This document shows positions 2,881-56,491 of a stretch of 64,000 bases of DNA, piece by piece. Under the pieces are notes generated by a model that saw only the letters and a program-made list of their open reading frames with translations, was not told where the DNA came from and made no database searches. Made by a program: the position numbers and the translations under genes. The stretch comes from Gammaproteobacteria bacterium. GTDB lineage: Bacteria > Pseudomonadota > Gammaproteobacteria > Steroidobacterales > Foliamicaceae. Numbering within the stretch: the stretch's first letter is position 1; the number at the start of each line of letters is the position of its first letter. Location of the stretch: assembly GCA_009845905.1 (NCBI GenBank), contig VXYS01000009.1, positions 580,325 through 644,324 on the forward strand, read 5' to 3'.

Positions 2881-4107
2881 ATGAGCACATCTCCCATAGT
2901 GCTGGCCTATTCCGGCGGACTGGATACCTCGTTCTGCGTGCCCTGGCTGAGCGAGAAGTATCGGTGCCCGGTGGTCACGCTGACGGTCAATACCGGCGGC
3001 ATCGATTCCGGCCAGGCCGAATCGCTGGAGCGCCGAGCCCTGGCGTTGGGCGCCCGGCGGCATCTGCTGGTGGAGGCGCGCCCGCAGTTCTTCGATGAAG
3101 TGATCCGCCATCTCATTGCCGGCAACGTGCGGCGCGGGCACACGTATCCGCTGTGCGTGGGCGCCGAGCGGGGCGTGCAGGCGAAAATCCTGGCCCGCAC
3201 CGCGCAGGAGCTGGGCAGCGACACCGTGGCGCACGGCTGCACAGCCGCCGGCAACGACCAGTTCCGTTTTGAAATGGCCATGCGCGCGCTGGCGCCCGAA
3301 ATTACCGTGCTGGCGCCGGTGCGCGACGAGTCCTTCCAGCGCCGTGAGCAGGTCGCGTACCTGGCCGAGTGCGGCGCGCCGCAACTTCCGCAGGGCGGCG
3401 ATTACTCGATCAATCGGGGCCTGTGGGGCGTGACGATAGGCGGCCGCGAGACCCTGACTTCCGCGGGCTCCATCCCGGAAGAGGCCTGGGTGCTGTCAGC
3501 GGGTGCGCTGGAGGATCCGCGTCTCCCGGAGTCGCATGAACTGGAATTCGAGGTGGGGCTGCCGGTTGCCTGGGACGGCGAAGCCATGCAGCCCGTGGAG
3601 CTGATCGAGACGCTCGAAGCCGCCGGGAGCCGGTTCGGAATCGGCCGGGGCATCCACCTGGGCGACACGATTCTCGGCTCCAAGGGCCGGGTGGCCTACG
3701 AAGCTCCGGCCGCGGAGATACTCCTGTGCGCGCATCGCGAACTGGAAAAACTCACGCTGGGCGCGGGACAGATGCGGGTCAAGGACACGCTGGCGGCCGT
3801 CTACGGCGACCTGGTTCACGAGGGCAAGCAACTCGATCCGGTCTGCCGGGATATCGAGGCCTATTTCGACAGTTCGCAGGCGCGGGTATCGGGCCGCGTG
3901 CACCTGGCGCTGCAGCCGGGAGCCGTCTGGGTCCGCGGCGTCGAATCGCCCCATTCGCTGCTGGCCGCAAGCCGGGGCGTGTACGGGGAGAAGGCCGGGG
4001 AATGGTCTCCACGCGATGCGCTGGGCGCGGCCCGGGTCATGGCGCTGCCCGGCATGCTGCACAGTCGCGTGGGCGAATCGGCCGAAGGAGGTGGCAGCGA
4101 TGCGTAG
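2881..4107 (+). CDS. argG: Argininosuccinate synthase
   Basis: N-terminal AYSGGLDTS ATP-pyrophosphatase motif, 408 aa, arginine-operon context. Confidence 0.95.
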   Translation: MSTSPIVLAYSGGLDTSFCVPWLSEKYRCPVVTLTVNTGGIDSGQAESLERRALALGARRHLLVEARPQFFDEVIRHLIAGNVRRGHTYPLCVGAERGVQAKILARTAQELGSDTVAHGCTAAGNDQFRFEMAMRALAPEITVLAPVRDESFQRREQVAYLAECGAPQLPQGGDYSINRGLWGVTIGGRETLTSAGSIPEEAWVLSAGALEDPRLPESHELEFEVGLPVAWDGEAMQPVELIETLEAAGSRFGIGRGIHLGDTILGSKGRVAYEAPAAEILLCAHRELEKLTLGAGQMRVKDTLAAVYGDLVHEGKQLDPVCRDIEAYFDSSQARVSGRVHLALQPGAVWVRGVESPHSLLAASRGVYGEKAGEWSPRDALGAARVMALPGMLHSRVGESAEGGGSDA

Positions 4108-5161
4108 CGTAGTGATCGACAAGATGGCCTCGGTCGCCTCGGGCCTCGAACTGGGGCGCGAATTGCGCGTGGGCGAGAGCATTCCCAGCGAGGAAGGCGT
4201 GATCGTGGCCGTGGAAGTCCTGAACGACAAATCCTCGTATAACCGGCTGGAACTGGCCAGCGGCCGAATGGCGCGCGTGCGCAGCGGCGATATCGTGGTG
4301 GGCGCCCTGGGCCACCGCAAGGCCCTGTTCGGGTATTCCGGCCACCTGCCGGAGACCGTAAAGCGCGGCGACGTCCTGCAGTTGCTCAACATAGGCGGCG
4401 TCATAGGCGTGTGCGACTCCGTCAACGCCACGATGGGTTCGCCCTTCGACGTGCGCGTTCTGGGAGTGGTGCTGGAGTTCCCGTACCTGGGCCAACGGGT
4501 CGGCGTGCCCGCGCGGGTCGGTGGGCAGGCGCTGGATGGCGAGGGGCCGGGCGAACTCAACCTCGGGGGCGTTCCGGTCGTGGCCCTGGCCGGAACCTGC
4601 ATGAACTCGGGCAAGACCGCGGCAGCCTGTGCGATTATCGGCCGGCTGCGGCACGAGGGCTACGTGGTGGACGCCTTCAAGGCCACCGGCGTATCGCTGC
4701 GCCGCGACATCCTCGCGATGGAGGACGCCGGCGCGCGAAATACCGCGATCTTCACCGATTTCGGGATCGTCAGCACGGCTCCGGAGAACGCACCGACCCT
4801 GGTGCGTTCGATGCTGCGGCAGATGGCGGCGGCAGCGCCCGACGTGATCCTGTTCGAGTTGGGCGACGGCATACTGGGCGCCTATGGCGTGGAGGCCATC
4901 CTCGCCGACGACGGGATACGCTCGTCCATTTCCTGCCTGCTGCTGTGCGCCAGCGATCCCGTCGCCGCCTGGGGCGGGGCGCGGCTGCTCAAGGAGCTTT
5001 ACGGGATCGAGGTGGCCGCCGTTACAGGTCCGGCCACGGACAACCAGGTGGGACTGGACATCCTGGGGCAGCGGGTCGGCGTGCCGGGCTATAACGCGCT
5101 GACGCAAAGCGCGGAGCTCGGCGAGTTCGTGGCCCGCAACGTCTCGCTGGGGCGGTTATGA
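4100..5161 (+). CDS. Uncharacterised P-loop (SIMIBI/BioD/DUF1611-like) protein embedded in the arg operon
   Basis: ATG at 4100 preceded by ggaggtgg and overlapping the argG stop by 8 nt. Its stop overlaps the argC start (ATGA 5158-5161). Motif GTCMNSGKT (4592-4618) fits the G-T-x4-G-K-T loop. No arginine-enzyme family recognised. Confidence 0.75.
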   Translation: MRSVVIDKMASVASGLELGRELRVGESIPSEEGVIVAVEVLNDKSSYNRLELASGRMARVRSGDIVVGALGHRKALFGYSGHLPETVKRGDVLQLLNIGGVIGVCDSVNATMGSPFDVRVLGVVLEFPYLGQRVGVPARVGGQALDGEGPGELNLGGVPVVALAGTCMNSGKTAAACAIIGRLRHEGYVVDAFKATGVSLRRDILAMEDAGARNTAIFTDFGIVSTAPENAPTLVRSMLRQMAAAAPDVILFELGDGILGAYGVEAILADDGIRSSISCLLLCASDPVAAWGGARLLKELYGIEVAAVTGPATDNQVGLDILGQRVGVPGYNALTQSAELGEFVARNVSLGRL

Positions 5162-43184: not shown

Positions 43185-45074
43185 CTAGTTGTCGGGAAAC
43201 GTGCGCTGTGTCCACTCTATGATGTCCGCCAACACCTGTGGCTTCGACTCCCTCAATCCGTGGCTGCCCTGCATATACCACCGGGACTCGGCATTGCCTT
43301 TGTGTGCTGACGTGAATTCTTCGATAAACGACTTACTCATTAGTCCATCGCGCTGGCCGGCGATAGTCAAGCTGGGCCGGTCAAATTCGGCCACGCGGTC
43401 AGTATGGACAGCTCGGGAATCGGGAGCCCAGTACTCAAGATACATCCCTGCCAGTTGGTCCATCACACTTCTTAATGGTCCGAATCGCTCTTCCGAAGCC
43501 GCATAGAACTTGTGATTGATCAGATAACTGTCGCCTTCGCCCCGTGCTACTGCCGCACGGGCTTCCTCGAGAACCTGTAGATATCGCTCTTCCCCCATCC
43601 CGTCTCGGCCCCATGTGGGCATGTCCCGTGTCGGCGCCAGATAGACCATTCCGATGACACGCGAATCCTGGCTGACGCTCATGTAATTGCTGATCCAGAT
43701 ACCGCCCGCCGAGTGACCTTCCATGATGACTCGGTCATGGCCACGAGACTCCAGAAAATCCACCCACAATCCGAGATCTTCAGCTACCTCCGCCAGCCCG
43801 GTCTTTTGAATGCCTTGTGCGCCGGAAATGCGGCTCTCCGGTGCCAAGACCACATAACCCGACACCGCAAGCCGCCACCCAAGCCAGTGATTCGAGCTGT
43901 GCACAATGTCACCCGTCCAACCGTGCTGCAGCAGGAAAACGGGTTTGTCAGGATCGGCACCTGCAGCGGGCGTGTACAGAATTCCCGGGTGATATCGGCC
44001 ATTACCCATGGCCACATCCACGACTTCGGTGACTATTCGCGACTTTGGCGCAAGCTCAAGGTCACTCAGCCACAATGTCACGTCATCAGAAACCTGATCC
44101 CACACTCCTTCAAAGAAGCGATTGGTGTCTTTGTACCAGCGATAGTCGACCCTGGAACTGGCTGTGGCCGATTGGGCTAACGCCTCCAGTCGCCCGGCCG
44201 GCACCGTAGGATCATTGATCCCGGACAACAGTAGTATCGGCATCTTGATTTTCGGAAGCCAATCCGACGTTCTGGTCTTGGCCTCGGGACCCCAAAAACT
44301 CAGAAAAGCCTCGGCCGTCTGAATCACTCCGTCAGCAACGTAGATCCACTCGTCAGGTGCCAGGCCCTTTTGCATGTCCGGATCTGCACTTCTGTCTGCA
44401 CCGCCGCGGCCCGCGGCAACCGCCCTTTGCGCACGCACCAACTTTTGATCGTAGTCCTGGACCAACCCCGTCGCTTCAACAACAGAGCCTTCGCCGTGCA
44501 AGTCGGACGGCGAGAAGTTCACTACCGCTTTGACGCGAGGATCTTGAGTTGAAGCTTGATACCAGGTCACCCTGGACGCCCCCAGACCGTGGCCCGCCAG
44601 AATCAGCTCTTGAATTCCTCGAGAATTGAGGAAATCGAGGCCGGTCTGAATATCCAATGCTGTTTCTTCAAACTTCACCGTTCGATAGTGCCTGGCGTGG
44701 CGCGAGTAGATGCTGAGAACCGTGTAGCCCTCCGCGGCCAGACGTTCTGCGGCAAAGCGGGCCGGACCGGTCGATCGGGCGGGATGCCCACCCAGTCCAT
44801 CGTGGTGAATCAAGATGCCCGGACTGTACTGATTGATACCGTCGTCGGGATAGAACAGCATGGCCATCAGCGGCTCCGCCGATTGACCCAAGTCTCGCAG
44901 GAGCTTCGCATATTGACCGGACACAACCGTCGGTATGGATAGGATTTCCACTTTCACGCCCGAGGTACGAGGTACCAAACCGGTCGCCTCCGGCGTCCCG
45001 ACTTCTTGTGCATGCCCCATTGGGCCCAAAACAAACCACGCAATCCCAACAACTATCAACGAAGCCCTTCTCAT
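43185..45074 (-). CDS. Secreted tandem-domain alpha/beta hydrolase (domain 1 lacks nucleophile, domain 2 GHSAG)
   Basis: ATG 45074 preceded by ggaggtg. Signal peptide MRRASLIVVGIAWFVLGPMGHAQ. Elbow 1 is AGHGLGAS (44580-44594) and elbow 2 is EGHSAGG (43695-43724). Confidence 0.8.
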   Translation of the reverse strand: MRRASLIVVGIAWFVLGPMGHAQEVGTPEATGLVPRTSGVKVEILSIPTVVSGQYAKLLRDLGQSAEPLMAMLFYPDDGINQYSPGILIHHDGLGGHPARSTGPARFAAERLAAEGYTVLSIYSRHARHYRTVKFEETALDIQTGLDFLNSRGIQELILAGHGLGASRVTWYQASTQDPRVKAVVNFSPSDLHGEGSVVEATGLVQDYDQKLVRAQRAVAAGRGGADRSADPDMQKGLAPDEWIYVADGVIQTAEAFLSFWGPEAKTRTSDWLPKIKMPILLLSGINDPTVPAGRLEALAQSATASSRVDYRWYKDTNRFFEGVWDQVSDDVTLWLSDLELAPKSRIVTEVVDVAMGNGRYHPGILYTPAAGADPDKPVFLLQHGWTGDIVHSSNHWLGWRLAVSGYVVLAPESRISGAQGIQKTGLAEVAEDLGLWVDFLESRGHDRVIMEGHSAGGIWISNYMSVSQDSRVIGMVYLAPTRDMPTWGRDGMGEERYLQVLEEARAAVARGEGDSYLINHKFYAASEERFGPLRSVMDQLAGMYLEYWAPDSRAVHTDRVAEFDRPSLTIAGQRDGLMSKSFIEEFTSAHKGNAESRWYMQGSHGLRESKPQVLADIIEWTQRTFPDN

Positions 45075-45400
45075 GGCACCTCCGATTGATTCAATAACTC
45101 GAACCACTCCAATCTCTTCAATGCGGCGTCAACTACGCCACCACGTTAATTTCGTGAAATCCTTTGTGCGCGGCGAAACAACCACCTCCCGCTCGATGCG
45201 ACTCGCCATTGGCATCGGCCAAATCATAGACCAAAACGTTTGCGCCAGCCTGAAACTCGACACGTAGAGCGATAACCCGTACGCTCGACGGCTTGTGCGA
45301 GAGACACGTACCGAGTTACGCGACCTGTTCGCAGATTTTGGTGCTGTCGCCAGTCAATAGGGACGCTACTACCCCTTCCGCGATACATTGAGAGCCAGGC

Positions 45401-46117
45401 ATGAGACTTTTCTATTCGCCGTTCCACAGTTTCGTGCACAAGACTCTGGTCGTTGCGCACGAGGCGGGCCTTTGGGAGACACTCACCCGAGTGCCCACTT
45501 TTCCATTCCGCGACCTCAATGGACGATTCGTCACCGGTCAGTACGACATGAGCGAACTCGCTCCGCTGGGGAAGGTGCCTTGTTTGGCGCTGGAGGACGG
45601 TAGCGTCCTGTACGGCAGTCAAACCATTGTCGAATTTCTCGACGCGCAACGCGTCACGAACAGGCTTTATCCCCCGGACGGAGCGAAGCGTTGGGATGCG
45701 CTGCGTCGCCTTGCGCTCGGCGACACGCTGTTCGAATGCGCCGTGCAACTGAGCATGGAAGCGTGGTTACCGGAAGAAGCACGTCGCCGAACACTGTACG
45801 AATGGGTGTGGCCCAAGATCGTAGCGACATTGGACGATGCCGATCGTTGGGCGGCAACAAACCCGGACTTCGATATCGGTTCGGCCGGCTTGCTGCAAGG
45901 TGTCAGTTACCTTGGCGAAGAAGGAAGCGCCGAAGACCTCTTGCACCCGAGGTACCGGTGGCGCGACGGACGACCTGCGCTGAGCGATTGGTACGACGTG
46001 GTCATCCAACGCCCATCGGTGCAAACACACTTGAATGTCGATTATGACGGCGACATGTCACCGGAGAACCACCAACGCCATGTCCAGGCCGTACTCGACA
46101 TAAGGAAAAAACGGTAG
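45401..46117 (+). CDS. Glutathione S-transferase family protein
   Basis: Thioredoxin-like N-domain MRLFYSPFHSFVHK...LGKVPCLALEDGSVLYGSQTIVEFLD and a helical C-domain. Confidence 0.8.
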   Translation: MRLFYSPFHSFVHKTLVVAHEAGLWETLTRVPTFPFRDLNGRFVTGQYDMSELAPLGKVPCLALEDGSVLYGSQTIVEFLDAQRVTNRLYPPDGAKRWDALRRLALGDTLFECAVQLSMEAWLPEEARRRTLYEWVWPKIVATLDDADRWAATNPDFDIGSAGLLQGVSYLGEEGSAEDLLHPRYRWRDGRPALSDWYDVVIQRPSVQTHLNVDYDGDMSPENHQRHVQAVLDIRKKR

Positions 46118-46816
46118 ATGATTGACTTCTATTTCTGGCCAACGCCAAATGGGCAAAAGGTGGCGATCATGCTTGAGGAAGTTGGACTCGAGTACACCAC
46201 AATCCCCGTCAATATCCTTGAGGGTGAGCAGTTCGCGAAGGATTTTCTCACGATTAGCCCCAACAACAAGATTCCAGCGATCGTCGACCATGCCGACGGA
46301 ACCGGTGGCCCCCATTTCCCGCTTTTCGAATCCGGGGCGATACTGATCTACCTTGCCGACAAGACCGGGCAGCTCTTGCCGTCATCCCCTCGATTGCGCT
46401 TCGAAGTCCTGCAGTGGTTAATGTTTCAGATGGCGAGCGTTGGGCCCATGTTTGGTCAGTGTGGGCACTTTCTTGGCTATGCGCCTGAGAAGATTCCCTA
46501 TGCGATAGAACGCTATCAAAACGAAACACTTCGATTGTACAAAGTCATGGATAAACGGCTTGCGGATGTTCCATATATTGCTGGCGACTACTCTATCGCC
46601 GATGTCGCGATCTATCCGTGGGTCCAAGTGCGCTGGCTGCACGAAATTGACATCACTCAGTTTCCGAATGTAGAGCGCTGGTACAACACCTTGTCTGATC
46701 GACCAGCAGTTCAACGCGGATGTGCCCTGCTAAAAGAACATGAAGTGATCGGCGACCCGTCCGATGAGACTCGCGAAGCGTTCTTCGGCAAGACACAACT
46801 GGAACAGGGACAGTAG
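46118..46816 (+). CDS. Glutathione S-transferase, Nu-class (YfcG/YghU-like)
   Basis: MIDFYFWPTPNGQKVAIMLEE...NNKIPAIVD...LFESGAILIYLADKTG closely resembles the YfcG-type N-terminus. Starts immediately after the previous stop. Confidence 0.88.
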   Translation: MIDFYFWPTPNGQKVAIMLEEVGLEYTTIPVNILEGEQFAKDFLTISPNNKIPAIVDHADGTGGPHFPLFESGAILIYLADKTGQLLPSSPRLRFEVLQWLMFQMASVGPMFGQCGHFLGYAPEKIPYAIERYQNETLRLYKVMDKRLADVPYIAGDYSIADVAIYPWVQVRWLHEIDITQFPNVERWYNTLSDRPAVQRGCALLKEHEVIGDPSDETREAFFGKTQLEQGQ

Positions 46817-46818
46817 AA

Positions 46819-47814
46819 ATGGCCGATATCACACAGGTGATTCTGGAACGCCGCCCCAACGGCGTACCGCAAGCAAGCGACTTCCGTCTGGAGTCCACAC
46901 CTTTGCCAACGCCTGGAGAGGGTCAGATTCTCATCAAGGTTCACTATCTGTCCCTGGACCCGTATTTGCGAGGAAAGATCTCCGGGCGGCATATGTCGGG
47001 AGGCGTTGAACCAGGGTCGGTCATGGCCGGTGAAACGGTTGGCGAGGTGGTCGAGTCCCATTCACCAGAATTCGCCGTAGGTGATACCGTCCACTCGTTT
47101 TCCGGCTGGTGCAGTCACGCTGCCGTCGACGCATCAACAGCGCGAAAGGTTCAGTCGCACGGGTTGCCGCTGTCGTTGGCGCTAGGTGCGCTGGGCATGC
47201 CAGGACTTACGGCCTATGCCGGCATCAAACGCCTGGCCGATATTCGTGCAAACGACACGTTCCTCGTATCGGCGGCATCCGGTCCGGTCGGCTCAGTCGC
47301 CGCCCAAATCGCACGACTGGCTGGCGCACGCACGGTGGGCATTGTCGGCTCTCCTCAGAAGTCGGATTGGATTCTCGATGAGGCCAGGTTCGACGACGCC
47401 ATCAATTACCGCGAAGAAGATCTGCGAGACGGGATCAGGCGTACCTGTCCTGATGGCGTTGATGTTTATTTCGACGCAATTGGTGGCGACGTGCTGGAAG
47501 CCGTTTGTGAGCAGTTGGCGCTTCAGGCGCGAGTTATATTGTGCGGTTTGTTGGCTCAATACAATTCGAAAGAACGACTGATGGGACCGCCACCTGGCCT
47601 GATTATTCGCGCTCGGGCGCACATGCACGGATTGGTTGTGTACGACCATGAAGACTTACGCGCGGAGATGGAGGCAAAGAACAGCGCCTGGATTCACAGT
47701 GGCGATATGGCCTACAACGAAGATGTCGCCGATGGTTTGGAAAACGCCGGGGAGGCGTTTGCACGGCAGATGTCCGGCAAGAACTTCGGCAAGTCGATTG
47801 TTCGCATCAGCTAG
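46819..47814 (+). CDS. NADP-dependent alkenal/enone oxidoreductase (MDR, CurA/YncB/PTGR1-like)
   Basis: LSLDPYLRGK and the nucleotide motif AASGPVGSVAAQIARLAG; 331 aa. Confidence 0.88.
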   Translation: MADITQVILERRPNGVPQASDFRLESTPLPTPGEGQILIKVHYLSLDPYLRGKISGRHMSGGVEPGSVMAGETVGEVVESHSPEFAVGDTVHSFSGWCSHAAVDASTARKVQSHGLPLSLALGALGMPGLTAYAGIKRLADIRANDTFLVSAASGPVGSVAAQIARLAGARTVGIVGSPQKSDWILDEARFDDAINYREEDLRDGIRRTCPDGVDVYFDAIGGDVLEAVCEQLALQARVILCGLLAQYNSKERLMGPPPGLIIRARAHMHGLVVYDHEDLRAEMEAKNSAWIHSGDMAYNEDVADGLENAGEAFARQMSGKNFGKSIVRIS

Positions 47815-47870
47815 CCCTCTGTAACTTCTGCAACCGGCGCTGATTGCCAAAGACCTTAGGGGTAAAAACC

Positions 47871-49682
47871 ATGCCAGGCTCCCGCACCGCACGAACGTTT
47901 CTCACCACGCTCGCCCTCCTGATCGGCACATTCAATGCCAATGCCCAGGATGCATCGATCGACATCGAACTGCTGACACTGACGGCGGAGGACAATCGAG
48001 AGATCGCCGCATTCATCATGCATCCCAAGACCGGTATCAACCCGGCCTCCCCAGGACTGATCTTCCATCATGGCGGTCCCGGCGGTCATGGCGCTCGCTT
48101 GATCGGCGCACCTCGCTACGCGGCCGATGCGATGGCGAGACTCGGATACACCACGATTACCATCGTCTCACGGCACTCCAACACCTACGTGGACGAGCCG
48201 CTTGAAAACGCGGCGCTGGATGTCGACGCAGCGTTGAAGGTGCTCCTTAGCAAGGGAATCGAAGACATCGTTTTGGTGGGCAACAGTTTCGGTAGCGTGC
48301 GGGTGTCCATGTTCATGCGCGATCGCCCGAGCCCGAACGTTCGTGCCATGGTCCATGTCGCCCCGACCTATGACTTGAACAAGCACATGAGGGAGCTGTC
48401 CGATATGGCTCCCGACTACGCCATGCACCTGGAAAAATTGCGCCGCGCCGTCAAGGATCGGCAAGGCCGGTTGCCATCGCCGGACGCTGACAATCCTGAT
48501 CGACTTGCGACGCCTCCATTATTCCAAACGGGGTTTGGACGCCCGCAGACCGCAGCCACACTGCTTAACTGGTGGGGCCCCGATGCGGACAATCAATTGT
48601 CGGACATAATTGCGCACTTTGAAATTCCCCAGTTGCTCCTGGGCGGTACGAACGATCGTGTGACACAGCCGGAACGGCTGGAATTCCTAAGAACCAGCGC
48701 AAGATCGAGTTCCCGCGTTGATGTAATTGCCTACCAGGACGGTGATCATTACTTTACGGGGTATCAAGAGAAAGTTGCCAGCGATATCGCCGACTGGCTC
48801 ACCGAACTCGGCCTGGCCCCGGCACCGTATGCCACCGTCCGCTTTTTCGACAACAACCAGGTCGTCGAATTCAACGGTGTTGATTTCGCTATCCGAAGCC
48901 CCGGGCTCATCTACGAACCACAACAGGCAGGAGACGTTCGTGAGCGCCCCGCAATTTTGTTGCTGCCCGATTGGAAAGGCTATCTGCTAAGCGATTCCAT
49001 GGACAATATGGCAAGAGCCATAGCGTCCACCGGGCACACTGTGGTAGTGCCGCAACTGCAATCGGACGGTTTCCGAGGCAGCCAGAACACCACGTTCGAC
49101 CGGACGCGGCAAGATATTGCGGCCTGGCTTGACGCAGTGAAGCAAGCCGGCTATGAACGGGTCATCGGCATTGGCCTGGGTACCAGCGGATTGTGGCTCG
49201 CGGACAATGATCGGCACGCGCCGGATAGTGCGTTCACGGGCTTTGTGCTGGTCGATCCTCCGATCTCGTTGCGCGACGACGCCAGTGTTGGCATCGGCAA
49301 GGATCGATTAGACCAACTCGTTGAGCAAGCGAACGAATGGATCGCGGCCGGAACCGATCGCAATCATGTGATTCACGCCGCTTACCAATCCCCGCATATG
49401 CCCGGCGAACCCGGACTCAATCGTATTATTCAATACGCGCCAACGTTTCTCGAGTACTACGGCCCGGATTCCAAAATGGAGCTCGGCCGGTACGTCAATC
49501 GGTTGTCGAGACCGACCTTGGTCCTGGCCGCACCGAACCGGTTTTATGACAGCGATGATGGTTTGGCCCGGGCGCTTCGGCGCGCACCGAAGACTACTAC
49601 GCTGGCTTGGCAAGCTGAGTTAACCACACCGAAAAGCGCTGCGAATGCTATTGGTGAGTGGTTGGCTTCACTTCCCAACTAG
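47871..49682 (+). CDS. Secreted tandem-domain alpha/beta hydrolase (domain 1 GNSFG, domain 2 lacks nucleophile)
   Basis: ATG 47871 follows agggg. Signal peptide ...LALLIGTFNANAQ. Elbow 1 is VGNSFGS (48273-48299) and elbow 2 is IGLGTSG (49164-49196). Paralog of 43185-45074. Confidence 0.8.
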   Translation: MPGSRTARTFLTTLALLIGTFNANAQDASIDIELLTLTAEDNREIAAFIMHPKTGINPASPGLIFHHGGPGGHGARLIGAPRYAADAMARLGYTTITIVSRHSNTYVDEPLENAALDVDAALKVLLSKGIEDIVLVGNSFGSVRVSMFMRDRPSPNVRAMVHVAPTYDLNKHMRELSDMAPDYAMHLEKLRRAVKDRQGRLPSPDADNPDRLATPPLFQTGFGRPQTAATLLNWWGPDADNQLSDIIAHFEIPQLLLGGTNDRVTQPERLEFLRTSARSSSRVDVIAYQDGDHYFTGYQEKVASDIADWLTELGLAPAPYATVRFFDNNQVVEFNGVDFAIRSPGLIYEPQQAGDVRERPAILLLPDWKGYLLSDSMDNMARAIASTGHTVVVPQLQSDGFRGSQNTTFDRTRQDIAAWLDAVKQAGYERVIGIGLGTSGLWLADNDRHAPDSAFTGFVLVDPPISLRDDASVGIGKDRLDQLVEQANEWIAAGTDRNHVIHAAYQSPHMPGEPGLNRIIQYAPTFLEYYGPDSKMELGRYVNRLSRPTLVLAAPNRFYDSDDGLARALRRAPKTTTLAWQAELTTPKSAANAIGEWLASLPN

Positions 49683-49704
49683 ATTCGCAACGGACGCGAC
49701 TGCG

Positions 49705-51378
49705 CTAGTTCGCCAGTGCAGCGCTAATCGATTGTCCCCATTTCGCACTGTCATCGGGCAACGGGCAAATTTCCTTCCGCAACCACTCCGGCAGCTGATC
49801 GCTGACAGGCCCATTTCCGGATTGCCAATTTGGCACAAGACAAAGGCTGGTCTCGGCTTCCCCGTTTATTGAATACGTCGCTCGATGAAACTCCGAATAG
49901 GCGTTGCCCGATTTGAGCAAATCAATCGCCCGCCCGTGAATGCGAACGGGATCCAGCGGTTCTGCACGGGCCAATGTTGTGGCTTTGGTGCGCCTCCACC
50001 AAGTCCAGAAAAGATCTTGCTGCCTGGCGACAGAAAACGCTCGAATCAGGTGTGCACCACTGATGTCCGGATCAAAGGACAAGGCGGCTTCACTGAGTGC
50101 TTCAAACTCCGATAGCTCGGTAATCACCGGTGCGGTTGCCAGGCAAACAACTCGATTGACAAGCGCGGGGAAGGACTCCTTCAGACGGTTGCCGAGCAAC
50201 AAACCAGCGCCAATACCAATGACGTCAACGCCTTCGAATCCGAGTTGTGAGATTGCCTCGCCAACCGCAGTTACCGTTCGCGGAACCAGCTCATCGACAG
50301 AACCGGCTTGCATGGGTGAATCGCCGTGGCCGGGCAAGTCCATGGCCAATACCGGATGACGTGTTGCAAGGGCCGTCGCAATCGATTGAAAGACTTGAGC
50401 GGAACCACCCCAGTCGTGAAGAAACACGATAGGCCGGCATCCCATCCCGTTTGCCGCTTTGGCAAACAGTGTGCCCTGGGAGGTTTCGATGTACAACGGC
50501 TCGTAGTCTTCGCCGGCCGAAACTGCTGTCGTGTGTGCCGGCACAGGTGGTGCGTTACAAAAGCTCTGCTCAACCAGATATTTCAGCTGATTGGCGTAAC
50601 GTCCGCCCGCCGCATCAGAATAGATCGGCACATAGTTTTCGGGCAGCCCCCGGTCGATCAGCATCTGCACGCGGGCCAGGCCACTTGCCGATTCCCAGAC
50701 ATTGAGCGTTGCGGGCGCAGACAAACGATCGACGTTTGCGGCGTCCTCCCACGCAATGGCTCCCGCGTACAGCTGCTTGTAGTCAGTGCCCGCGCACAAA
50801 AGCTGCAACACCATATCGTGGAGCATCGCGGGCTCCGGAAAATCTCGCACTTGCCGACGCGACGGCTCTGCCTTTTGCCAGGGTGAAAACAAATACAGCC
50901 CACTGATTTTTTCCCATGATGCGAGCAAGTGCCCCCCGTCACGGCGTGGGATAACGTCCGGGAAATAACCCTCGAGGGTATCGTCGGTATCGTAGTGACT
51001 AAAGGTATCGAGCATGCACAACGCCGACGCGGTTGGGTACTTGCATCCAAATGCATGGGCGATTGCGGCCCCGGTGGATGCGCCGTAGACAACAGGATGC
51101 TCAAGCTCAAGCGCATCGATTGTGTCTTTGAGTGCGTCAGCGTGGGCAGCCATGTCACCTTGACCAATCGGGAGCGGTTCCGACAATCCAAACCCGGGAT
51201 TATCCAAAGCGAAGCACGTAAAGTGCTGCCCGAAGACCTGCATCGCCCCACGCATCGACTTTGAGGACAACGGCGACGCGTGCATCATGATCATGGGCGG
51301 GCCTGCACCGTATCGGCGATAGTGAACGCGCCTGCCAGCGGCGACCACAAAGTCACATTTCTCACTCACGATGTGCAC
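49705..51378 (-). CDS. Tandem-domain alpha/beta hydrolase (cytoplasmic; domain 1 GASTG, domain 2 GIGAG)
   Basis: VYGASTGAAIAH (51065-51090) and VIGIGAGLLLGN (50188-50223). Start uncertain: GTG at 51378 or 51369, both overlapping the SBP stop at 51362. The ORF-track start 51465 lies inside the SBP gene. Confidence 0.72.
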   Translation of the reverse strand: MHIVSEKCDFVVAAGRRVHYRRYGAGPPMIMMHASPLSSKSMRGAMQVFGQHFTCFALDNPGFGLSEPLPIGQGDMAAHADALKDTIDALELEHPVVYGASTGAAIAHAFGCKYPTASALCMLDTFSHYDTDDTLEGYFPDVIPRRDGGHLLASWEKISGLYLFSPWQKAEPSRRQVRDFPEPAMLHDMVLQLLCAGTDYKQLYAGAIAWEDAANVDRLSAPATLNVWESASGLARVQMLIDRGLPENYVPIYSDAAGGRYANQLKYLVEQSFCNAPPVPAHTTAVSAGEDYEPLYIETSQGTLFAKAANGMGCRPIVFLHDWGGSAQVFQSIATALATRHPVLAMDLPGHGDSPMQAGSVDELVPRTVTAVGEAISQLGFEGVDVIGIGAGLLLGNRLKESFPALVNRVVCLATAPVITELSEFEALSEAALSFDPDISGAHLIRAFSVARQQDLFWTWWRRTKATTLARAEPLDPVRIHGRAIDLLKSGNAYSEFHRATYSINGEAETSLCLVPNWQSGNGPVSDQLPEWLRKEICPLPDDSAKWGQSISAALAN

Positions 51379-52903
51379 GCTCGATGCCCTCGTATTCGAT
51401 AATCCCGAAACCTGCGCGATACTCCGTGATTTCACTGGCGTGCGCGTCGAATCTGGCTGCTTCATAAAGAATGAGCGCAGGAGGACTGGCCACCAGCTCA
51501 GCCATCATGGTTTGGGTCAGTTGCTCGCGCTTTGCCAGATCCGGCTCCGCGTAAGCTCGCTCTGCCAAAGGCATGACATCTTCATCGCAATGCCAAGGTA
51601 TCCTGCGCAAGCAGCTGTGTATGGTCATGACACTCAGCGCATCGAGTGCCGGCAGCAGGTTGTAATCGAGCATGAACATGCGGCCACGCCAATGGCCCGA
51701 GCCGATGCCGCTCACGAGTTGCGCCGAACTGATGATCTGCGGATTGACGGTAACGCCGACCCTCTTGAGATCAGCAAAAACCTGTTGAAACACGGCCGCA
51801 TCGTTTGTAGTAACACCCGTTATGACTTCCGCCACAATCTCAAAACCATCCGGGTAACCAGCCTCCGCCAACAACTTTTTTGCTCTATCCGGGTCATAGT
51901 CCAACGGAACAAGCTCCGGGTTGTACCCGAACGCCGATCGTATTGCCGGCTGCGAAGGGACAGGTACGGCGCCATCAAGAAACACATCGATGATCGGGGT
52001 TCGGTTGATCGCGATGTTCAGTGCCTGTCGGACCCTTGGGTCCTGAAGCGGCCCCTCCTCCACGGTGACGAACGTCAACACCAATATATTGGGCGCACGA
52101 TTCGCCTTGAAGACATACCCCGATGACTCCAATAGATCGCGATCTTCGGGCGACAACGCCATTGCAATGTCCACGTCACCCGATGTCAGTGTTTGTAAGC
52201 GAACGGACGAATCACTGACCTGCAAAATATCAAGTTGCTCCAGCTTCGCGGGCCGCCATGAGGCGTTATTGCGCACCAGGCGAATGCTGGCTTCGTTCCA
52301 GGACTCAACCGCGAAAGGCCCCGTTCCTACTGGCGCGGTCGCGAATTTTTCCGGACCTGCTTCGTCCCAATAGTCGGGGGCTACGATTCGGAATGCCGAC
52401 AGTACACGTGGCAAAAGTGGCACCGGCCGCCGTGTCGTAATCTGAACGCGGTGCGTGTCCAGGGCTATTACATGCTCCAGTACGGCGAGTTCACGCTGAA
52501 TGGCAAAGAGCTGCGCCGCTTCCGACTGCAGATACTCGGCGGCCCTGACAACCGCATGTGCGTTGAAGGGCTCGCCATTGGAAAACTCAACACCCTCTCG
52601 GAGATCGAAGACCCATGTCAGCTCGTCAAGTTGCTCCCAACTTATTGCAAGTGCGGGCTTGAAACTGCCATCGGACTGCAAGTTCGTGAAGCCATCGAAA
52701 ATTGCCGAAAAGAACGTAATCGATGGCGTCGCGTAGCCTGAGTAGGGATTCCCTTTGCCGGCAGGAAAGTTCGGCATGGCCAACACTGCACTGTTGACAG
52801 GTGCGTCATCCTGTGAAGATGAGCAAGCGCATAAGCCAAGGAATGTCGCGAGGCTGATGAAGGCGATCGCTGCGACTCGCCATTCCCGAATCCGGACTCT
52901 CAC
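51362..52903 (-). CDS. ABC transporter substrate-binding protein, family 5 (peptide/nickel type), probable lipoprotein
   Basis: GTG 52903 overlaps the VOC stop (GTGA). AAIAFISLATFLGLCACSSS signal; SBP_bac_5-like blocks (ITFFSAIFDGFTNL, WEQLDELTWVFDLREGVEFSNGEPF). Confidence 0.85.
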   Translation of the reverse strand: MRVRIREWRVAAIAFISLATFLGLCACSSSQDDAPVNSAVLAMPNFPAGKGNPYSGYATPSITFFSAIFDGFTNLQSDGSFKPALAISWEQLDELTWVFDLREGVEFSNGEPFNAHAVVRAAEYLQSEAAQLFAIQRELAVLEHVIALDTHRVQITTRRPVPLLPRVLSAFRIVAPDYWDEAGPEKFATAPVGTGPFAVESWNEASIRLVRNNASWRPAKLEQLDILQVSDSSVRLQTLTSGDVDIAMALSPEDRDLLESSGYVFKANRAPNILVLTFVTVEEGPLQDPRVRQALNIAINRTPIIDVFLDGAVPVPSQPAIRSAFGYNPELVPLDYDPDRAKKLLAEAGYPDGFEIVAEVITGVTTNDAAVFQQVFADLKRVGVTVNPQIISSAQLVSGIGSGHWRGRMFMLDYNLLPALDALSVMTIHSCLRRIPWHCDEDVMPLAERAYAEPDLAKREQLTQTMMAELVASPPALILYEAARFDAHASEITEYRAGFGIIEYEGIERAHRE

Positions 52904-53814
52904 CGGGATCTCTCGCGCCAGCGTCGATTCGCCTCCATGTCTTCGGCAAAGGCCACCGCGTTGTCCCTGCAACCACTCTGCTCGTAGCGTTCTTCATAGC
53001 CGATGAGATGTCCTTCAGGATCACAGATATAGCCGAGCACGCCGCGGCCAAACTGAATTCGGTCGTTCACGATTCGAACTTTGTTCGCCAGAAGCGTCTC
53101 TCGAAAACCGTCAAAATCATCGACGCGCAGGATAAACGCATCAGGTACTTCGAAACGATCTTGCGGCGGAGACTCTGCTTGTCCGCCCGCCCTGAGCTCA
53201 AGTGCGGTCGAATCGCCACAATCGAGTACAACGTGCGTTGGTGCTGCCTCGACAATGGGCAGTCCGACAGTGTCGGAATAGAACGCCGCCATAGCGCCGA
53301 GATCGGCGACGTGACGGATGATCGAGTCTATGCCCTGAATATCCCGCGGCAAGGGCGCAACACCCGGATTGTAGGCGCGATGGTTTTCCCGCATCGTCAA
53401 TCGCTCGCGAGCGACAATATCAATCGGCCTCGTCGAATCCATCGGGGCCTGTCGGAGCATGACGAAGTGCTCATCGATGTCTTGAAAAACCGCATAGTCG
53501 CCAAACTCGTCGTTTCCGGACGCCACTACATCCACGTTGAAACGCCTCAAACGGGACAGGACACTGCCTAGCTCCACGCATCGAATTACCGGTAACGTCG
53601 GACTGCTTTTCCAATCGGGATAACGCCATTCGGGTCCCGCGTCGGACTTGGGCTCAAACACGACTGTCTCTCCAGCCCAAAACAACCAGGCATCTGCGTA
53701 GCCCCGCAACAATGGCAGTTGCAGGACTTCACCATAAAAGGCCGCCACGCGTTCCGCATTCTGCGACCGCGGCAACACCCAACCCAGACTGATAACTCGA
53801 GCCGATCGCGACAT
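52900..53814 (-). CDS. Two-module VOC (glyoxalase/bleomycin-resistance/dioxygenase) family protein
   Basis: ATG 53814 lies 17 nt downstream of the phyH stop. Two VOC-type module starts: AAFYGEVLQLPLL and AAFYSDTVGLPIV. Confidence 0.7.
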   Translation of the reverse strand: MSRSARVISLGWVLPRSQNAERVAAFYGEVLQLPLLRGYADAWLFWAGETVVFEPKSDAGPEWRYPDWKSSPTLPVIRCVELGSVLSRLRRFNVDVVASGNDEFGDYAVFQDIDEHFVMLRQAPMDSTRPIDIVARERLTMRENHRAYNPGVAPLPRDIQGIDSIIRHVADLGAMAAFYSDTVGLPIVEAAPTHVVLDCGDSTALELRAGGQAESPPQDRFEVPDAFILRVDDFDGFRETLLANKVRIVNDRIQFGRGVLGYICDPEGHLIGYEERYEQSGCRDNAVAFAEDMEANRRWRERSR

Positions 53815-53831
53815 TACGGCCTCCAGTTCCG

Positions 53832-54680
53832 TTACGCCGCAGCTTCCGAGCCCGGCCGCGCCCACACCAATGGAAACAGGTCACCGCCCGGTCGTTTCCC
53901 TTCGGGCAGCGAATCCATACCTGGCACACCCACTGCCCCTTCACGTGACTTCCAGCGGATATCATCGCCAATCCATCGCGACGACAATCCTACGCGCGGG
54001 TACTCGGCATTGGTTGCGTCGCCTGAACCATGCGGCGTACGCGGATGGAACAACACCGAATCGCCGGGCTCGAGATCGTAGCCAACAATTTCGTAATCGA
54101 AATCGGGATCCTCCCGAAGTTCATTGAAATCCGGACATACCGGTGCTGTCTCCGGCCCGAAATCACCCTTCAGATAGCTGCCTCGGAATATCATGTCCTC
54201 ATCGACGAGCTTCTTGTGATAGCCGGCGACAAACTCCAGACGACCGTTGGATTTCGACACAGGTTCAAGTGCCAGCCAAAGCGTCGGTACCTGGTGTCCA
54301 CTCATTGGCCACGTCGTCATGTCATGGTGCCACCGCATTACATGTGGCGATCCGATCGGCTTTATAAACAGGTGGTCTTGAAATGCTCTTATTTCCCGGC
54401 AACCCAATACACGACCCACAATCTCTGCGGCAGGCGAACTCAGAATATAGTCACGAAACAACCCACCGTGGCGCCACAGGTAGATTATCGAGACAAAGTT
54501 CTCGCTATGGGATGGTCCTGTATGCTCATATCGGTCGACATTTCTTGTGGCTTCGTCGACAGCTTCGCGCAATCGGTTGCACCATTCCTGATCGAACATG
54601 CCACGCACACAGACCACACCATCGCGCTCGTAGGTGGTGCGATGCTCGTCGCTGATTGGCTTTAACGGTTCTCTGTTCAT
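53832..54680 (-). CDS. PhyH-family Fe(II)/2-oxoglutarate dioxygenase
   Basis: ATG 54680 overlaps the ABC ATPase stop (ATGA). YERDGVVCVRGMF N-terminus, an HxD motif in RWHHD, and a distal His in LFHPRTPHGS. Confidence 0.8.
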   Translation of the reverse strand: MNREPLKPISDEHRTTYERDGVVCVRGMFDQEWCNRLREAVDEATRNVDRYEHTGPSHSENFVSIIYLWRHGGLFRDYILSSPAAEIVGRVLGCREIRAFQDHLFIKPIGSPHVMRWHHDMTTWPMSGHQVPTLWLALEPVSKSNGRLEFVAGYHKKLVDEDMIFRGSYLKGDFGPETAPVCPDFNELREDPDFDYEIVGYDLEPGDSVLFHPRTPHGSGDATNAEYPRVGLSSRWIGDDIRWKSREGAVGVPGMDSLPEGKRPGGDLFPLVWARPGSEAAA

Positions 54681-56491
54681 TTCATTTCTCCTGTCTCGGC
54701 TGAGCGCAGCTCGCCCGGAAAATGGCAGGCGACATGACGCCCGTGGCTTTCCTTCAGGGCGGGTTTTTCGACACTGCATAAAGGCCTGGCGATCGGACAA
54801 CGGGAATGGAAGGCACACCCGGAAGGGAGATTCAACGGTGACGGCTGCTCGCCCCGTAGCGAGATTCTCTCCGACCGCCGTTCCGGTTGTGGATCCGGCG
54901 CTGCTGACAGCAACGCTGCCGTATACGGATGCAGGGGGTCGCGGGTGAGTGTCCGCCCCTCGGCTTCCTCGACGATTTCGCCAAGGTACATAACAACGAG
55001 TCGATCCGCGATGTGATGCATCAATGCCAGATCGTGGGCGACGATGAGATACCCAATGCCAAATTCGGATTGCAGCGATTTGAGCAACGCCACGATTTGC
55101 GCCTGCATGGAAACGTCCAACCCGGCCACTGGTTCATCGGCGATCAGGATCTCCGGTTGTAATGCCAGCGCCCGAGCAATGGCGATGCGTTGGCGTTGTC
55201 CGCCGGAAAACTGATTCGGACGCCGATTGAGTGAATCGTCCGGCAGGCCTACCAATGACAATACCTCGCGAACTCTTCCCTCGCGCTCTTTTGGGGTTCC
55301 CAATCGTTGCGCGCGCAGCGGTTCCGCGACGATTTTGCGCACCGTCCATCGCGGATTGAGGCTGGCGTACGGATCCTGAAAGACCAACTGCAGGCGTCGC
55401 CGAAGCGGCTTTAGCTCCTGCTCACGTGCGTCGGTGATGTCTTGTCCATCAAAAAATACCGAACCCTGCGTTGGCCGGTGTATACCCATCAATGCCGAAA
55501 TCAGTGTTGACTTGCCTGATCCGGATTCGCCCACCAGCCCCACGGTTTCGCCACGACTCAAGGATATATCGACGCCGTTTACCGCGTGCAGATCCTGGCC
55601 TTTCGTCCTGAACGTCACGCGGAGCGTTTTGCCCTCAAGCAGCGGTCGATCCTCCACCGCGGTAAAGGAACTGCGTGGAACCACGTACGGGCGCCGAAAG
55701 CTCGGCACGGCACGAACAAGCGATTTCGTGTACTCATGCTGCGGGCGAGCAAGCAATTCCGCACACTCGCCTGATTCGATGAACTCACCACGTTTCATGA
55801 CCACGATTCGATCGCAAATCTCTGCGGCAACGCCCAAGTCATGCGTCACCAGAATCATGCCACGCTCGCCAATTCGACTCTTAAGCAAATCCAGGATCTG
55901 CGCTTGAATGGTTGAATCCAATGCTGTGGTTGGTTCGTCGGCGATCAGTAACGATGGATTGTTCAGTGTCGACAACGCAATCATTACACGTTGTCGGAGT
56001 CCGCCGGAAAGTTCGTGGGGATAAGCGCCGAATCGCTGTTCAGGCACCGGTATGCCGACGTCCGACATGGCCTCGACACAACGCGTACGTGCTTCCTTTA
56101 TGGAAATCTCCTGGTATCGAAGTACGGTCTCCAGCATCATTGCACCGACCGTACGCACAGGATTGAAACTACTCATTGGATCCTGAAACACCATGGCGAT
56201 TTCTCGCCCACGCAGTGCTCGCGTTTGCTCCGGACGATAGTCGGTAATTTCATGACCATTGAGCCGGACTGAGTCGACAGTACGAATTCCTGTTTGCGGT
56301 ACCAGATCAAGGAGGCTCAGTCCGACCATGGTTTTGCCGGAACCCGATTCGCCGACAAGACCAACGATCTCTCCTCGATTGATATTTAAATCGACAGCGC
56401 GAACGACCTTGTCCCAGGTACCATCAATCTTGGGAAATTTGACGGTCAGCCCGCGAAGCTCAAGGACACTGTTTTCTTGTCGAGGGTTCAT
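54677..56491 (-). CDS. Fused double ATPase of an oligopeptide-type ABC importer (DppD-DppF-like)
   Basis: ATG 56491 overlaps the permease stop (ATGA). Two Walker A sites (GESGSGKT, GESGSGKS), two signatures (LSGGLRQR, FSGGQRQR), and an oligopeptide C-terminal motif HPYT. Confidence 0.9.
   Translation of the reverse strand: MNPRQENSVLELRGLTVKFPKIDGTWDKVVRAVDLNINRGEIVGLVGESGSGKTMVGLSLLDLVPQTGIRTVDSVRLNGHEITDYRPEQTRALRGREIAMVFQDPMSSFNPVRTVGAMMLETVLRYQEISIKEARTRCVEAMSDVGIPVPEQRFGAYPHELSGGLRQRVMIALSTLNNPSLLIADEPTTALDSTIQAQILDLLKSRIGERGMILVTHDLGVAAEICDRIVVMKRGEFIESGECAELLARPQHEYTKSLVRAVPSFRRPYVVPRSSFTAVEDRPLLEGKTLRVTFRTKGQDLHAVNGVDISLSRGETVGLVGESGSGKSTLISALMGIHRPTQGSVFFDGQDITDAREQELKPLRRRLQLVFQDPYASLNPRWTVRKIVAEPLRAQRLGTPKEREGRVREVLSLVGLPDDSLNRRPNQFSGGQRQRIAIARALALQPEILIADEPVAGLDVSMQAQIVALLKSLQSEFGIGYLIVAHDLALMHHIADRLVVMYLGEIVEEAEGRTLTRDPLHPYTAALLSAAPDPQPERRSERISLRGEQPSPLNLPSGCAFHSRCPIARPLCSVEKPALKESHGRHVACHFPGELRSAETGEMK

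Follow-up and report, generated by a model that had tools for sequence, protein, structure and literature searches.

Tandem alpha/beta hydrolases with one predicted dead half, and a third tandem protein without a complete triad, in a gammaproteobacterial gene cluster

Three tandem alpha/beta-hydrolase genes

The window analysed here, a stretch of 64,000 nucleotides from a Gammaproteobacteria bacterium (assembly GCA_009845905.1, contig VXYS01000009.1, positions 580,325 to 644,324), contains three genes, which we call A, B and C, for proteins with two alpha/beta-hydrolase domains each. A (43185..45074, minus strand, 629 amino acids (aa)) is predicted to be an exported tandem hydrolase with a dead first domain (D1) and an intact second domain (D2). 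B (47871..49682, plus strand, 603 aa) is predicted, also from an AlphaFold2 (AF2) model, to be an exported tandem hydrolase of the opposite kind, with D1 intact and D2 dead. C (49705..51378, minus strand, 557 aa) is a cytoplasmic tandem protein of the Abhydrolase_1 type, with a complete catalytic triad in neither domain. An earlier reading of the same DNA, hereafter the original prediction, had named these open reading frames (ORFs) and a set of motifs in them; in the translations, and by residue and codon position, the three ORFs and every quoted motif of A, B and C lie where they had been placed.

Two alpha/beta-hydrolase matches are found by Pfam in each protein, and two domains also appear in the AF2 models of B and C, consistent with the tandem architecture first proposed for all three. 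In A, the matches are to Hydrolase_4 (residues 109-315, 54.0 bits) and Abhydrolase_1 (residues 378-489, 40 bits); in B, the first half matches Hydrolase_4/Abhydrolase_1 and the second half DLH, with a Hydrolase_4 score of 41.6 bits; in C, Abhydrolase_1 (residues 27-138) is followed by Abhydrolase_6 (residues 317-469), and Abhydrolase_1 reaches 75.5 bits over two stretches. With gathering cut-offs of 27 bits for Hydrolase_4 (PF12146) and 25.8 bits for Abhydrolase_1 (PF00561), the whole-protein scores make A and B members of the former family and C a member of the latter. None of the curated NCBIfam models comes near its cut-off with A, B or C. All three proteins can be assigned to the alpha/beta-hydrolase fold, A via its homology to B.

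Read by eye, the N-termini of A and B show a basic n-region, followed by a hydrophobic stretch and a site of AXA type (GHA/Q in A and ANA/Q in B, the slash marking the putative cleavage point). The putative Sec signal peptides would cover residues 1-22 of A (45009..45074, minus strand; MRRASLIVVGIAWFVLGPMGHA/Q) and residues 1-25 of B (47871..47945, plus strand; ending in FNANA/QD). In the model of B, this region forms an N-terminal helix (residues 4-19) of lower confidence. The N-terminus of C has no signal-peptide features by the same reading. Secretion of A and B, and a cytoplasmic location of C, had been suggested before, and the presence of an AXA-type signal region in the first two and its absence from the third agree with this.

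Active sites of A and B

A and B are 29-32% identical (in BLASTP, 526 residues align with 32% identity, E 6e-77). The second domain of A also aligns with the first domain of B (25% identity, E 2e-12), so that both halves of these proteins are homologous to each other. The BLASTP alignment of A and B is ungapped at both nucleophile elbows, placing GHGLG opposite GNSFG in D1 and GHSAG opposite GLGTS in D2, and in an alignment of 110 family members the motif columns of A and B coincide with the GHSxG, Asp and His columns of relatives with intact triads.

Across the six domains of the three proteins, a serine occupies the elbow in A-D2 (Ser455), B-D1 (Ser139) and C-D1 (Ser101), and a glycine in A-D1 (Gly163), B-D2 (Gly437) and C-D2 (Gly390). 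The catalytic His after strand beta8 is present in two domains only, A-D2 (His605) and B-D1 (His293); in the other four it is replaced by Arg (Arg319 in A-D1, Arg260 in C-D1), lost with its loop (B-D2) or absent (C-D2). In the acid column, Asp is found in A-D1 (Asp288), A-D2 (Asp576) and B-D1 (Asp262), Asn/Arg in B-D2 and no acid in C-D2. Intact triads can thus be located in A-D2 and B-D1, and C is left without one. The proposal that each protein keeps a single nucleophile holds for A and B; for C it is true only literally, because C has no catalytic His and Ser101 is Ala or His in its relatives.

In A, alignments and codons show a degenerate triad in domain 1 (44055..44957, minus strand, approximately residues 40-340): Gly163 stands in place of Ser within AGHGLGAS (44586-44588, GGT), Asp288 is kept (44211-44213) and Arg319 replaces His within DTNRFF (44118-44120, CGC). 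By the same evidence, domain 2 (43188..44042, minus strand, approximately residues 345-629) has an intact triad of Ser455 (43710-43712), Asp576 (43347-43349) and His605 (43260-43262), with the motifs EGHSAGG and GSHGL, and its GHSAGG pairs with GLSLGG of the carboxylesterase Est30 in the Protein Data Bank (PDB). Both the pairwise and the 110-member alignments agree with the earlier description of A, in which Gly occupies the nucleophile position of D1, DTNRFF lies opposite DGDHYF of B, and D2 is intact.

The reversed pattern described for B is confirmed by the ungapped alignment. Domain 1 of B (47952..48815, plus strand, residues 28-315) has an intact triad consisting of Ser139 (48285-48287, AGT; VGNSFGS), Asp262 (48654-48656) and His293 (48747-48749; DGDHYF), and Ser139 is kept in every member of the B clade. 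In domain 2 (48828..49679, plus strand, residues 320-603) the triad is absent: Gly437 (49179-49181, within IGLGTSG) is in the nucleophile column, Asn/Arg stand for Asp, the His loop is deleted, and P-D is found instead of the H-G oxyanion motif.

A conserved motif, [WY][WY]GP[DE], is found in the lids of both halves in the A/B family, and its Pro is nearly invariant even in dead halves. In B, this motif reads NWWGPD in D1 (48576-48590, residues 234-238) and EYYGPD in D2 (49458-49472, residues 528-532), with equivalent sites in A.

Structure models and structural neighbours

For B, AF2 modelling from the alignment of 110 sequences gave a predicted local distance difference test (pLDDT) of 93.8 and a predicted TM-score (pTM) of 0.89; the model of C has a pLDDT of 93.4 and a pTM of 0.91. 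Each model contains two full strand/helix repeats. In B-D1, Ser139 is the sole residue between strand 133-138 (beta5) and helix 140-151 (helix C). In B-D2, Gly437 and Thr438 together separate strand 431-436 from helix 439-449, and it is the gap-free homology alignment that puts the nucleophile column at Gly437.

This arrangement bears on the possibility that the dead domains are still enzymes, acting through a displaced nucleophile or through a nucleophile-free mechanism in which His and Asp activate water, so that each protein would have two activities. Ser or Thr residues do adjoin the elbow in B-D2 (GLGTSG) and A-D1 (GLGAS), many family members have only exchanged Ser for Gly while keeping Asp and His, and the nucleophile position varies among active alpha/beta hydrolases, being Ala in MKS1 (PMC3531081). 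However, A-D1 has Arg for His, and B-D2 is devoid of Asp and His and has P-D in place of the oxyanion H-G. A displaced nucleophile is unlikely and was rejected as a candidate, since Thr438 and Ser439 of B-D2 and Ser165 of A-D1 vary within their clades. We therefore regard residual catalysis of this kind in the dead halves as very improbable. Displaced elbows and intact triads in all domains, which would have spoken against the original prediction, were not seen, the A/B alignment being ungapped at the elbows.

More than 1400 alpha/beta hydrolases of the PDB match each of the models of B and C in Foldseek (E<=0.001). The neighbours of B are monoglyceride lipases (MGLs), PET46, cinnamoyl/feruloyl esterases and acylaminoacyl peptidases, with target-normalised TM-scores (TMt) of 0.64-0.81 for the named entries. 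No solved tandem alpha/beta-hydrolase structure was found by Foldseek with the B and C models against the PDB, where all matches are to single domains with query-normalised TM-scores (TMq) of <=0.38; the best match in a sequence search of the PDB with A has an E-value of only 0.004. The closest known types are the Hydrolase_4 (PF12146) enzymes of MGL/esterase type, namely, Rv0183 of M. tuberculosis (6eic), human MGLL (3pe6), PET46 (8b4u), Est1E (2wtm) and LJ0536 (3pfb), to which A and B are at most ~20% identical. The halves of A and B have the same fold as these enzymes, and their live halves show the canonical succession of GxSxG, Asp and His. Unlike these enzymes, which consist of one domain of ~250-300 aa, A and B combine two fused domains and a signal peptide with a single remaining triad.

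Origin of the A/B family and distribution of active-site states

The family was sampled by collecting 102 homologs with A and 10 with B, and active-site states were counted in 110 aligned members, with Glu accepted as the acid in a recount. Both triads are intact in 37 of the 110, D1 is degenerate in 54, D2 in 15, and both halves are imperfect in four (D1 G-D-H, D2 S-D-N), proportions that are biased by the use of A and B as queries and are not to be read as frequencies. The four members imperfect in both halves (P0090, P0092, P0095 and P0099) form one small clade, which either has no catalytic half at all or reflects a subtle alignment problem at the His of D2. A library search with B yielded 85 representative clusters at E<=1e-10, of which 35 also pass E<=1e-30; single-domain relatives (~300 aa) are among them. 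When 28 further tandem representatives were aligned, most consisted of one live and one dead half, with the dead half on either side.

In a tree of 84 separated domains, all D1 and all D2 sequences are split by one branch with 100% support. Because this split is clean, the tandem architecture of the A/B family must have arisen once, before its diversification. The domain phylogeny called for in the original prediction thus points to one ancient internal duplication behind A and B, and the descent of both from a two-domain ancestor, already suggested there, is supported by the sequences of the D1 and D2 clades together with the 37 relatives that have both triads. The family would have originated by a single ancient tandem duplication of a serine-hydrolase domain resembling Hydrolase_4 and monoglyceride lipases. 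Its tree is unrooted, and an ancestor with a Ser-Asp-His triad in both halves is the most economical reading. The deepest split of the family in the full-length FastTree tree separates A from B, and the minimum number of state changes is four for D1 and four for D2. One of the two active sites would thus have become dispensable repeatedly.

The source genome (2.8 Mb) encodes four A/B-family paralogs that represent all four states: both domains live, D1 dead, D2 dead, and loss of Ser only. The two paralogs outside the window were placed by alignment and are not on the tree. One of them, L003 (G000:C8:514334-516097), keeps both triads (GHSLGG..D..THAF and GHSAGG..D..PHSL), and the other, L004 (G000:C8:107260-109041), has lost only the Ser of D2 (GHGVGA), with Asp and His kept. 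Our literature search turned up no description of tandem alpha/beta hydrolases in which one half is dead. Judging from these comparisons, A and B represent a large, uncharacterised family of ~600-aa proteins, putatively Sec-exported, with two domains similar to Hydrolase_4 and monoglyceride lipases.

Timing of the two losses and selection on the dead halves

The A clade falls within a group of proteins that have both triads. Relatives with 57% identity to A still have Ser and His in D1 (GHSMGS and NHFFE), and P0006, an ortholog with 69% identity, has Gly and His (GHGMGS, still with NHFFE). NRFFE together with Gly is confined to A and its orthologs of 87-97% identity (P0001, P0004 and P0005 have Gly and Arg). 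In all seven intact D1 domains read at the codon level, the Ser codon is AGY, and Gly of A is encoded by GGT; the His codon of P0006 is CAT and the corresponding Arg codon of A is CGC. In the A lineage, the D1 Ser would therefore have changed to Gly first (AGY to GGY, one transition) and His to Arg later (CAY to CGY, one transition). Glycine suits the strained conformation of the nucleophile elbow in the alpha/beta-hydrolase fold. In the B clade, by contrast with A, D1 is intact and D2 has no triad in all members from 99% down to 52% identity. D2-dead proteins of lower identity (34%) group with the B clade, and a loss common to them and the B clade is only possible. All three triad residues of D2 and the oxyanion motif would have been lost in the B lineage long ago. 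The sequences thus indicate that the loss in A is recent and stepwise and the loss in B old, making them independent events.

This result argues against reciprocal subfunctionalisation, put forward in the original prediction, according to which a two-site gene was duplicated and the copies lost opposite sites, so that A and B together replace their ancestor. The scenario has in its favour that opposite halves are dead in paralogs located 2.8 kb apart in one island and that both dead domains are under purifying selection. However, A and B are 29-32% identical and separated by the deepest split of the family; the loss in A is recent, with 57% relatives intact and His still present in the 69% ortholog, whereas that in B is common to its clade down to 52% identity. 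Furthermore, the genome also has a paralog with both sites intact and a fourth with a Ser-to-Gly change in D2, and B occurs without A in the relatives L017, L019 and L001. We consider reciprocal subfunctionalisation improbable, and independent losses in the two lineages remain our preferred explanation.

Ratios of nonsynonymous to synonymous substitution rates (dN/dS), computed against orthologs at 87-88% protein identity, are 0.13 for A-D1 (dead) and 0.15 for A-D2 (live), and 0.07 for B-D1 (live) and 0.18 for B-D2 (dead). For C-D2, which has no triad, dN/dS is 0.13. The dead halves of A and B are under purifying selection; they are therefore retained, which fits a non-catalytic role, as had been proposed for these degenerate domains (dN/dS 0.13-0.18). 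The view that the triad-less domains are functionless relics in neutral decay, awaiting deletion, can draw on the faster evolution of dead than of live domains: in the domain tree, the stem of the B clade measures 1.47 for D2 versus 0.53 for D1, and B-D2 is 64% identical to the 72% ortholog of B, B-D1 81%. Nevertheless, dN/dS values far below 1, the preservation of length and predicted fold in the dead halves, with secondary structure kept and the B model confident throughout, the many invariant clade-specific residues in D2 of the B clade, and the endurance of the dead state over deep divergence all contradict neutral decay, which we hold to be the least probable of the alternatives considered. 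By homology, loss of catalytic residues and purifying selection, A-D1, B-D2 and C-D2 would qualify as pseudoenzyme domains.

Protein C and its family

Protein C has a different background. BLASTP of A against C gives nothing significant, and a common origin of A, B and C was rejected, given the missing A-C match and the different Pfam and structural neighbours. The two domains of C show homology to one another, and a cap motif, DGxHLxxxW...FxPW, occurs in both. Domain 1 (50554..51378, minus strand, residues 1-275) has Ser at the elbow and no His: Ser101 (51076-51078, GASTG) lies in the model between strand 96-100 and helix 102-113, and chloroperoxidase F has GFSTG opposite GASTG. The post-beta8 loop, DAAGGRY, is devoid of His and carries a conserved Arg at that place, Arg260 (50599-50601). 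C-D1 does have acids, namely, Glu229 behind beta7 and an almost invariant Asp124 behind beta6, but they lack a His partner. In domain 2 (49708..50511, minus strand, residues 290-557), Asp and His are absent at the canonical sites, and Gly390 (50209-50211, GIGAG) is likewise the lone residue between beta5 and helix C in the model.

The elbow was surveyed in 39 members of the C family. In D1, Ser is found only in part of the nearest clade; Ala occupies the position in P0120 (58% identity) as well as in P0122-24/27, and His does so in most of the distant members (GRHTG, GSHTG). In D2, the elbow residue is Gly, Asn, His or Ser, and Trp in the second C-family paralog of the genome. P0123, a C homolog with Ala at the elbow, is located in the same cluster of two glutathione S-transferase (GST) genes and a reductase gene, which suggests that the D1 Ser is dispensable for the role of C-type proteins in this cluster. 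According to the authors of ESTHER, no residue other than His is conserved in every active site of the alpha/beta-hydrolase fold (PMC3531081). C thus cannot be described as "one live, one dead", because neither half has a canonical site, and the claim of one active and one degenerate domain in C does not stand: the catalytic His is absent from both domains, and the D1 Ser is not conserved. For the same reason C would be no classical serine hydrolase, and that it acts as one in spite of its GxSxG motif appears very unlikely from its sequence.

The reference types for C are Abhydrolase_1 enzymes of the haloperoxidase/esterase and dehalogenase types, namely, chloroperoxidase F (1a8s), bromoperoxidase (3fob), PhaZ (8ynv) and fluoroacetate dehalogenase (3r3u). 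The halves of C resemble them in fold, in the H-x-x-P oxyanion motif and in the register of the GxNuxG elbow (Nu, nucleophile). They differ in that the catalytic His is in neither half and a family-specific cap motif is in both, and the C family as a whole differs in the variable elbow (Ser/Ala/His in D1, Gly/Asn/His/Ser/Trp in D2). C would stem from an internal duplication of its own, in an Abhydrolase_1 subfamily whose sampled members mostly have His at the elbow.

The same genome encodes further relatives. L007 (G000:C10:90113-91792) is the second C-family tandem protein, with the elbows GFHTG and GVWGG, whereas L008 (C8:49633-50379, GSHTG) and L009 (C12:66939-67613, GHHTG) consist of a single domain and have His at the nucleophile position. 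In L009, Asp and His of the canonical triad are retained. One of the single-domain relatives in this genome aligns over its full length with the bromoperoxidase 3fob and has His in the Ser column with canonical Asp and His kept. L007-L009 look like members of an uncharacterised "His-elbow" Abhydrolase_1 subfamily.

The GTG start codon of C overlaps the end of the upstream solute-binding protein (SBP) gene by 17 nucleotides (nt; 51362-51378). A second GTG lies three codons downstream and would give the start VSEKC, similar to MSEEC of an ortholog, and a shorter overlap.

Interpretation

Taken together, the data are best explained by a family in which one of two sites has been lost repeatedly, with A and B as single-site proteins and C as no classical serine hydrolase, and we regard this explanation as likely. 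A and B would each be a periplasmic or secreted hydrolase with a single site, D2 being active in A and D1 in B, probably of carboxylesterase or lipase type. The dead half is probably kept as a partner of the live half, whether for structural support, as a lid or as a substrate-binding module. C probably has a binding or non-canonical catalytic role, as suggested by its sequence and its place in a conserved catabolic cluster shared with B.

Several points weigh against this explanation. Many "dead" domains, such as those of P0006 and L004, keep Asp and His and differ only in Ser to Gly, which may mean water-activating or altered chemistry. C may have an unconventional site, for example one involving the conserved cap histidines His150 and His443. 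Export of A and B rests on a reading by eye, and the query bias of the sample affects the state counts.

A different reading, possible although rather unlikely in our view, takes the A/B family as an obligate intramolecular pseudo-heterodimer and, separately, the C family as a non-hydrolytic or ligand-binding lineage. The two halves in the A/B family may form one composite substrate site, so that one triad suffices, and either half may be convertible, repeatedly and with a reversible choice of half in evolution, into a dedicated substrate-binding or lid module. The C family and its single-domain His-elbow relatives may bind ligands or catalyse reactions other than hydrolysis in a conserved marine catabolic cluster (GST, enone reductase, PhyH, VOC).

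Among known proteins, close parallels are the neuroligins, the ChEL domain of thyroglobulin and DPP6, listed by ESTHER as non-catalytic proteins of the alpha/beta-hydrolase fold (PMC3531081). In these proteins the fold is kept under selection and the triad replaced, and A-D1, B-D2 and the two halves of C resemble them in this respect. NDRG is another non-catalytic protein of this fold. Neuroligins and the like are mostly eukaryotic stand-alone proteins with adhesion or regulatory roles, whereas in the bacterial, putatively exported A and B the dead copy is fused to its live sister; moreover, the dead half differs between lineages of the A/B family, and either one can be affected. A and B are thus alpha/beta hydrolases with a predicted pseudoenzyme domain, a known kind of protein and not a new kind of system, and a good model of pseudoenzyme evolution. 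The family provides a well-sampled natural experiment in which enzyme domains die without being discarded, as well as a practical system for studying the contribution of a dead catalytic domain to its live twin, and it gives a basis for annotating A/B-type proteins correctly as single-site enzymes.

Gene neighbourhood

B and C are convergent, with stop codons 22 nt apart (49682-49705), which leaves little room for separate terminators. Within the window, positions 45401-54818 contain two GST genes, an enone reductase gene and B, followed by C and genes for a FAD_binding_2 oxidoreductase, SBP5, VOC and PhyH. The same order recurs in a Woeseiaceae metagenome-assembled genome (JANQPG010000010) and in metagenome contigs at 60-80% protein identity; the loci of the conserved cluster are L019, L001, L022 and L021. 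A search of the named genomes with the B-clade alignment found two loci only. A is a more variable member of the cluster, paired with an FAD_binding_2 oxidoreductase and missing from relatives that have B. The cluster fits a putative exported esterase that would feed an importer and cytoplasmic catabolic enzymes, and the source bacterium is of marine-sediment type. The corrected view of C matters for annotating this conserved catabolic cluster.

Two of the related loci deviate from the common arrangement. L021 is devoid of B; its cluster includes P0296, a further tandem protein of the C family (GRHTG / GVGSG), together with genes for an AMP-ligase, an Amidohydro_2 enzyme and a FAD_binding_4 oxidase. 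In L017, a metagenome contig of a close relative with an 88% ortholog of B, A is missing, the two GSTs are present only as fragments of 44 and 50 aa and the reductase is truncated to 253 aa (3290-4284); either a deletion in this version of the island or an error of assembly may account for this.

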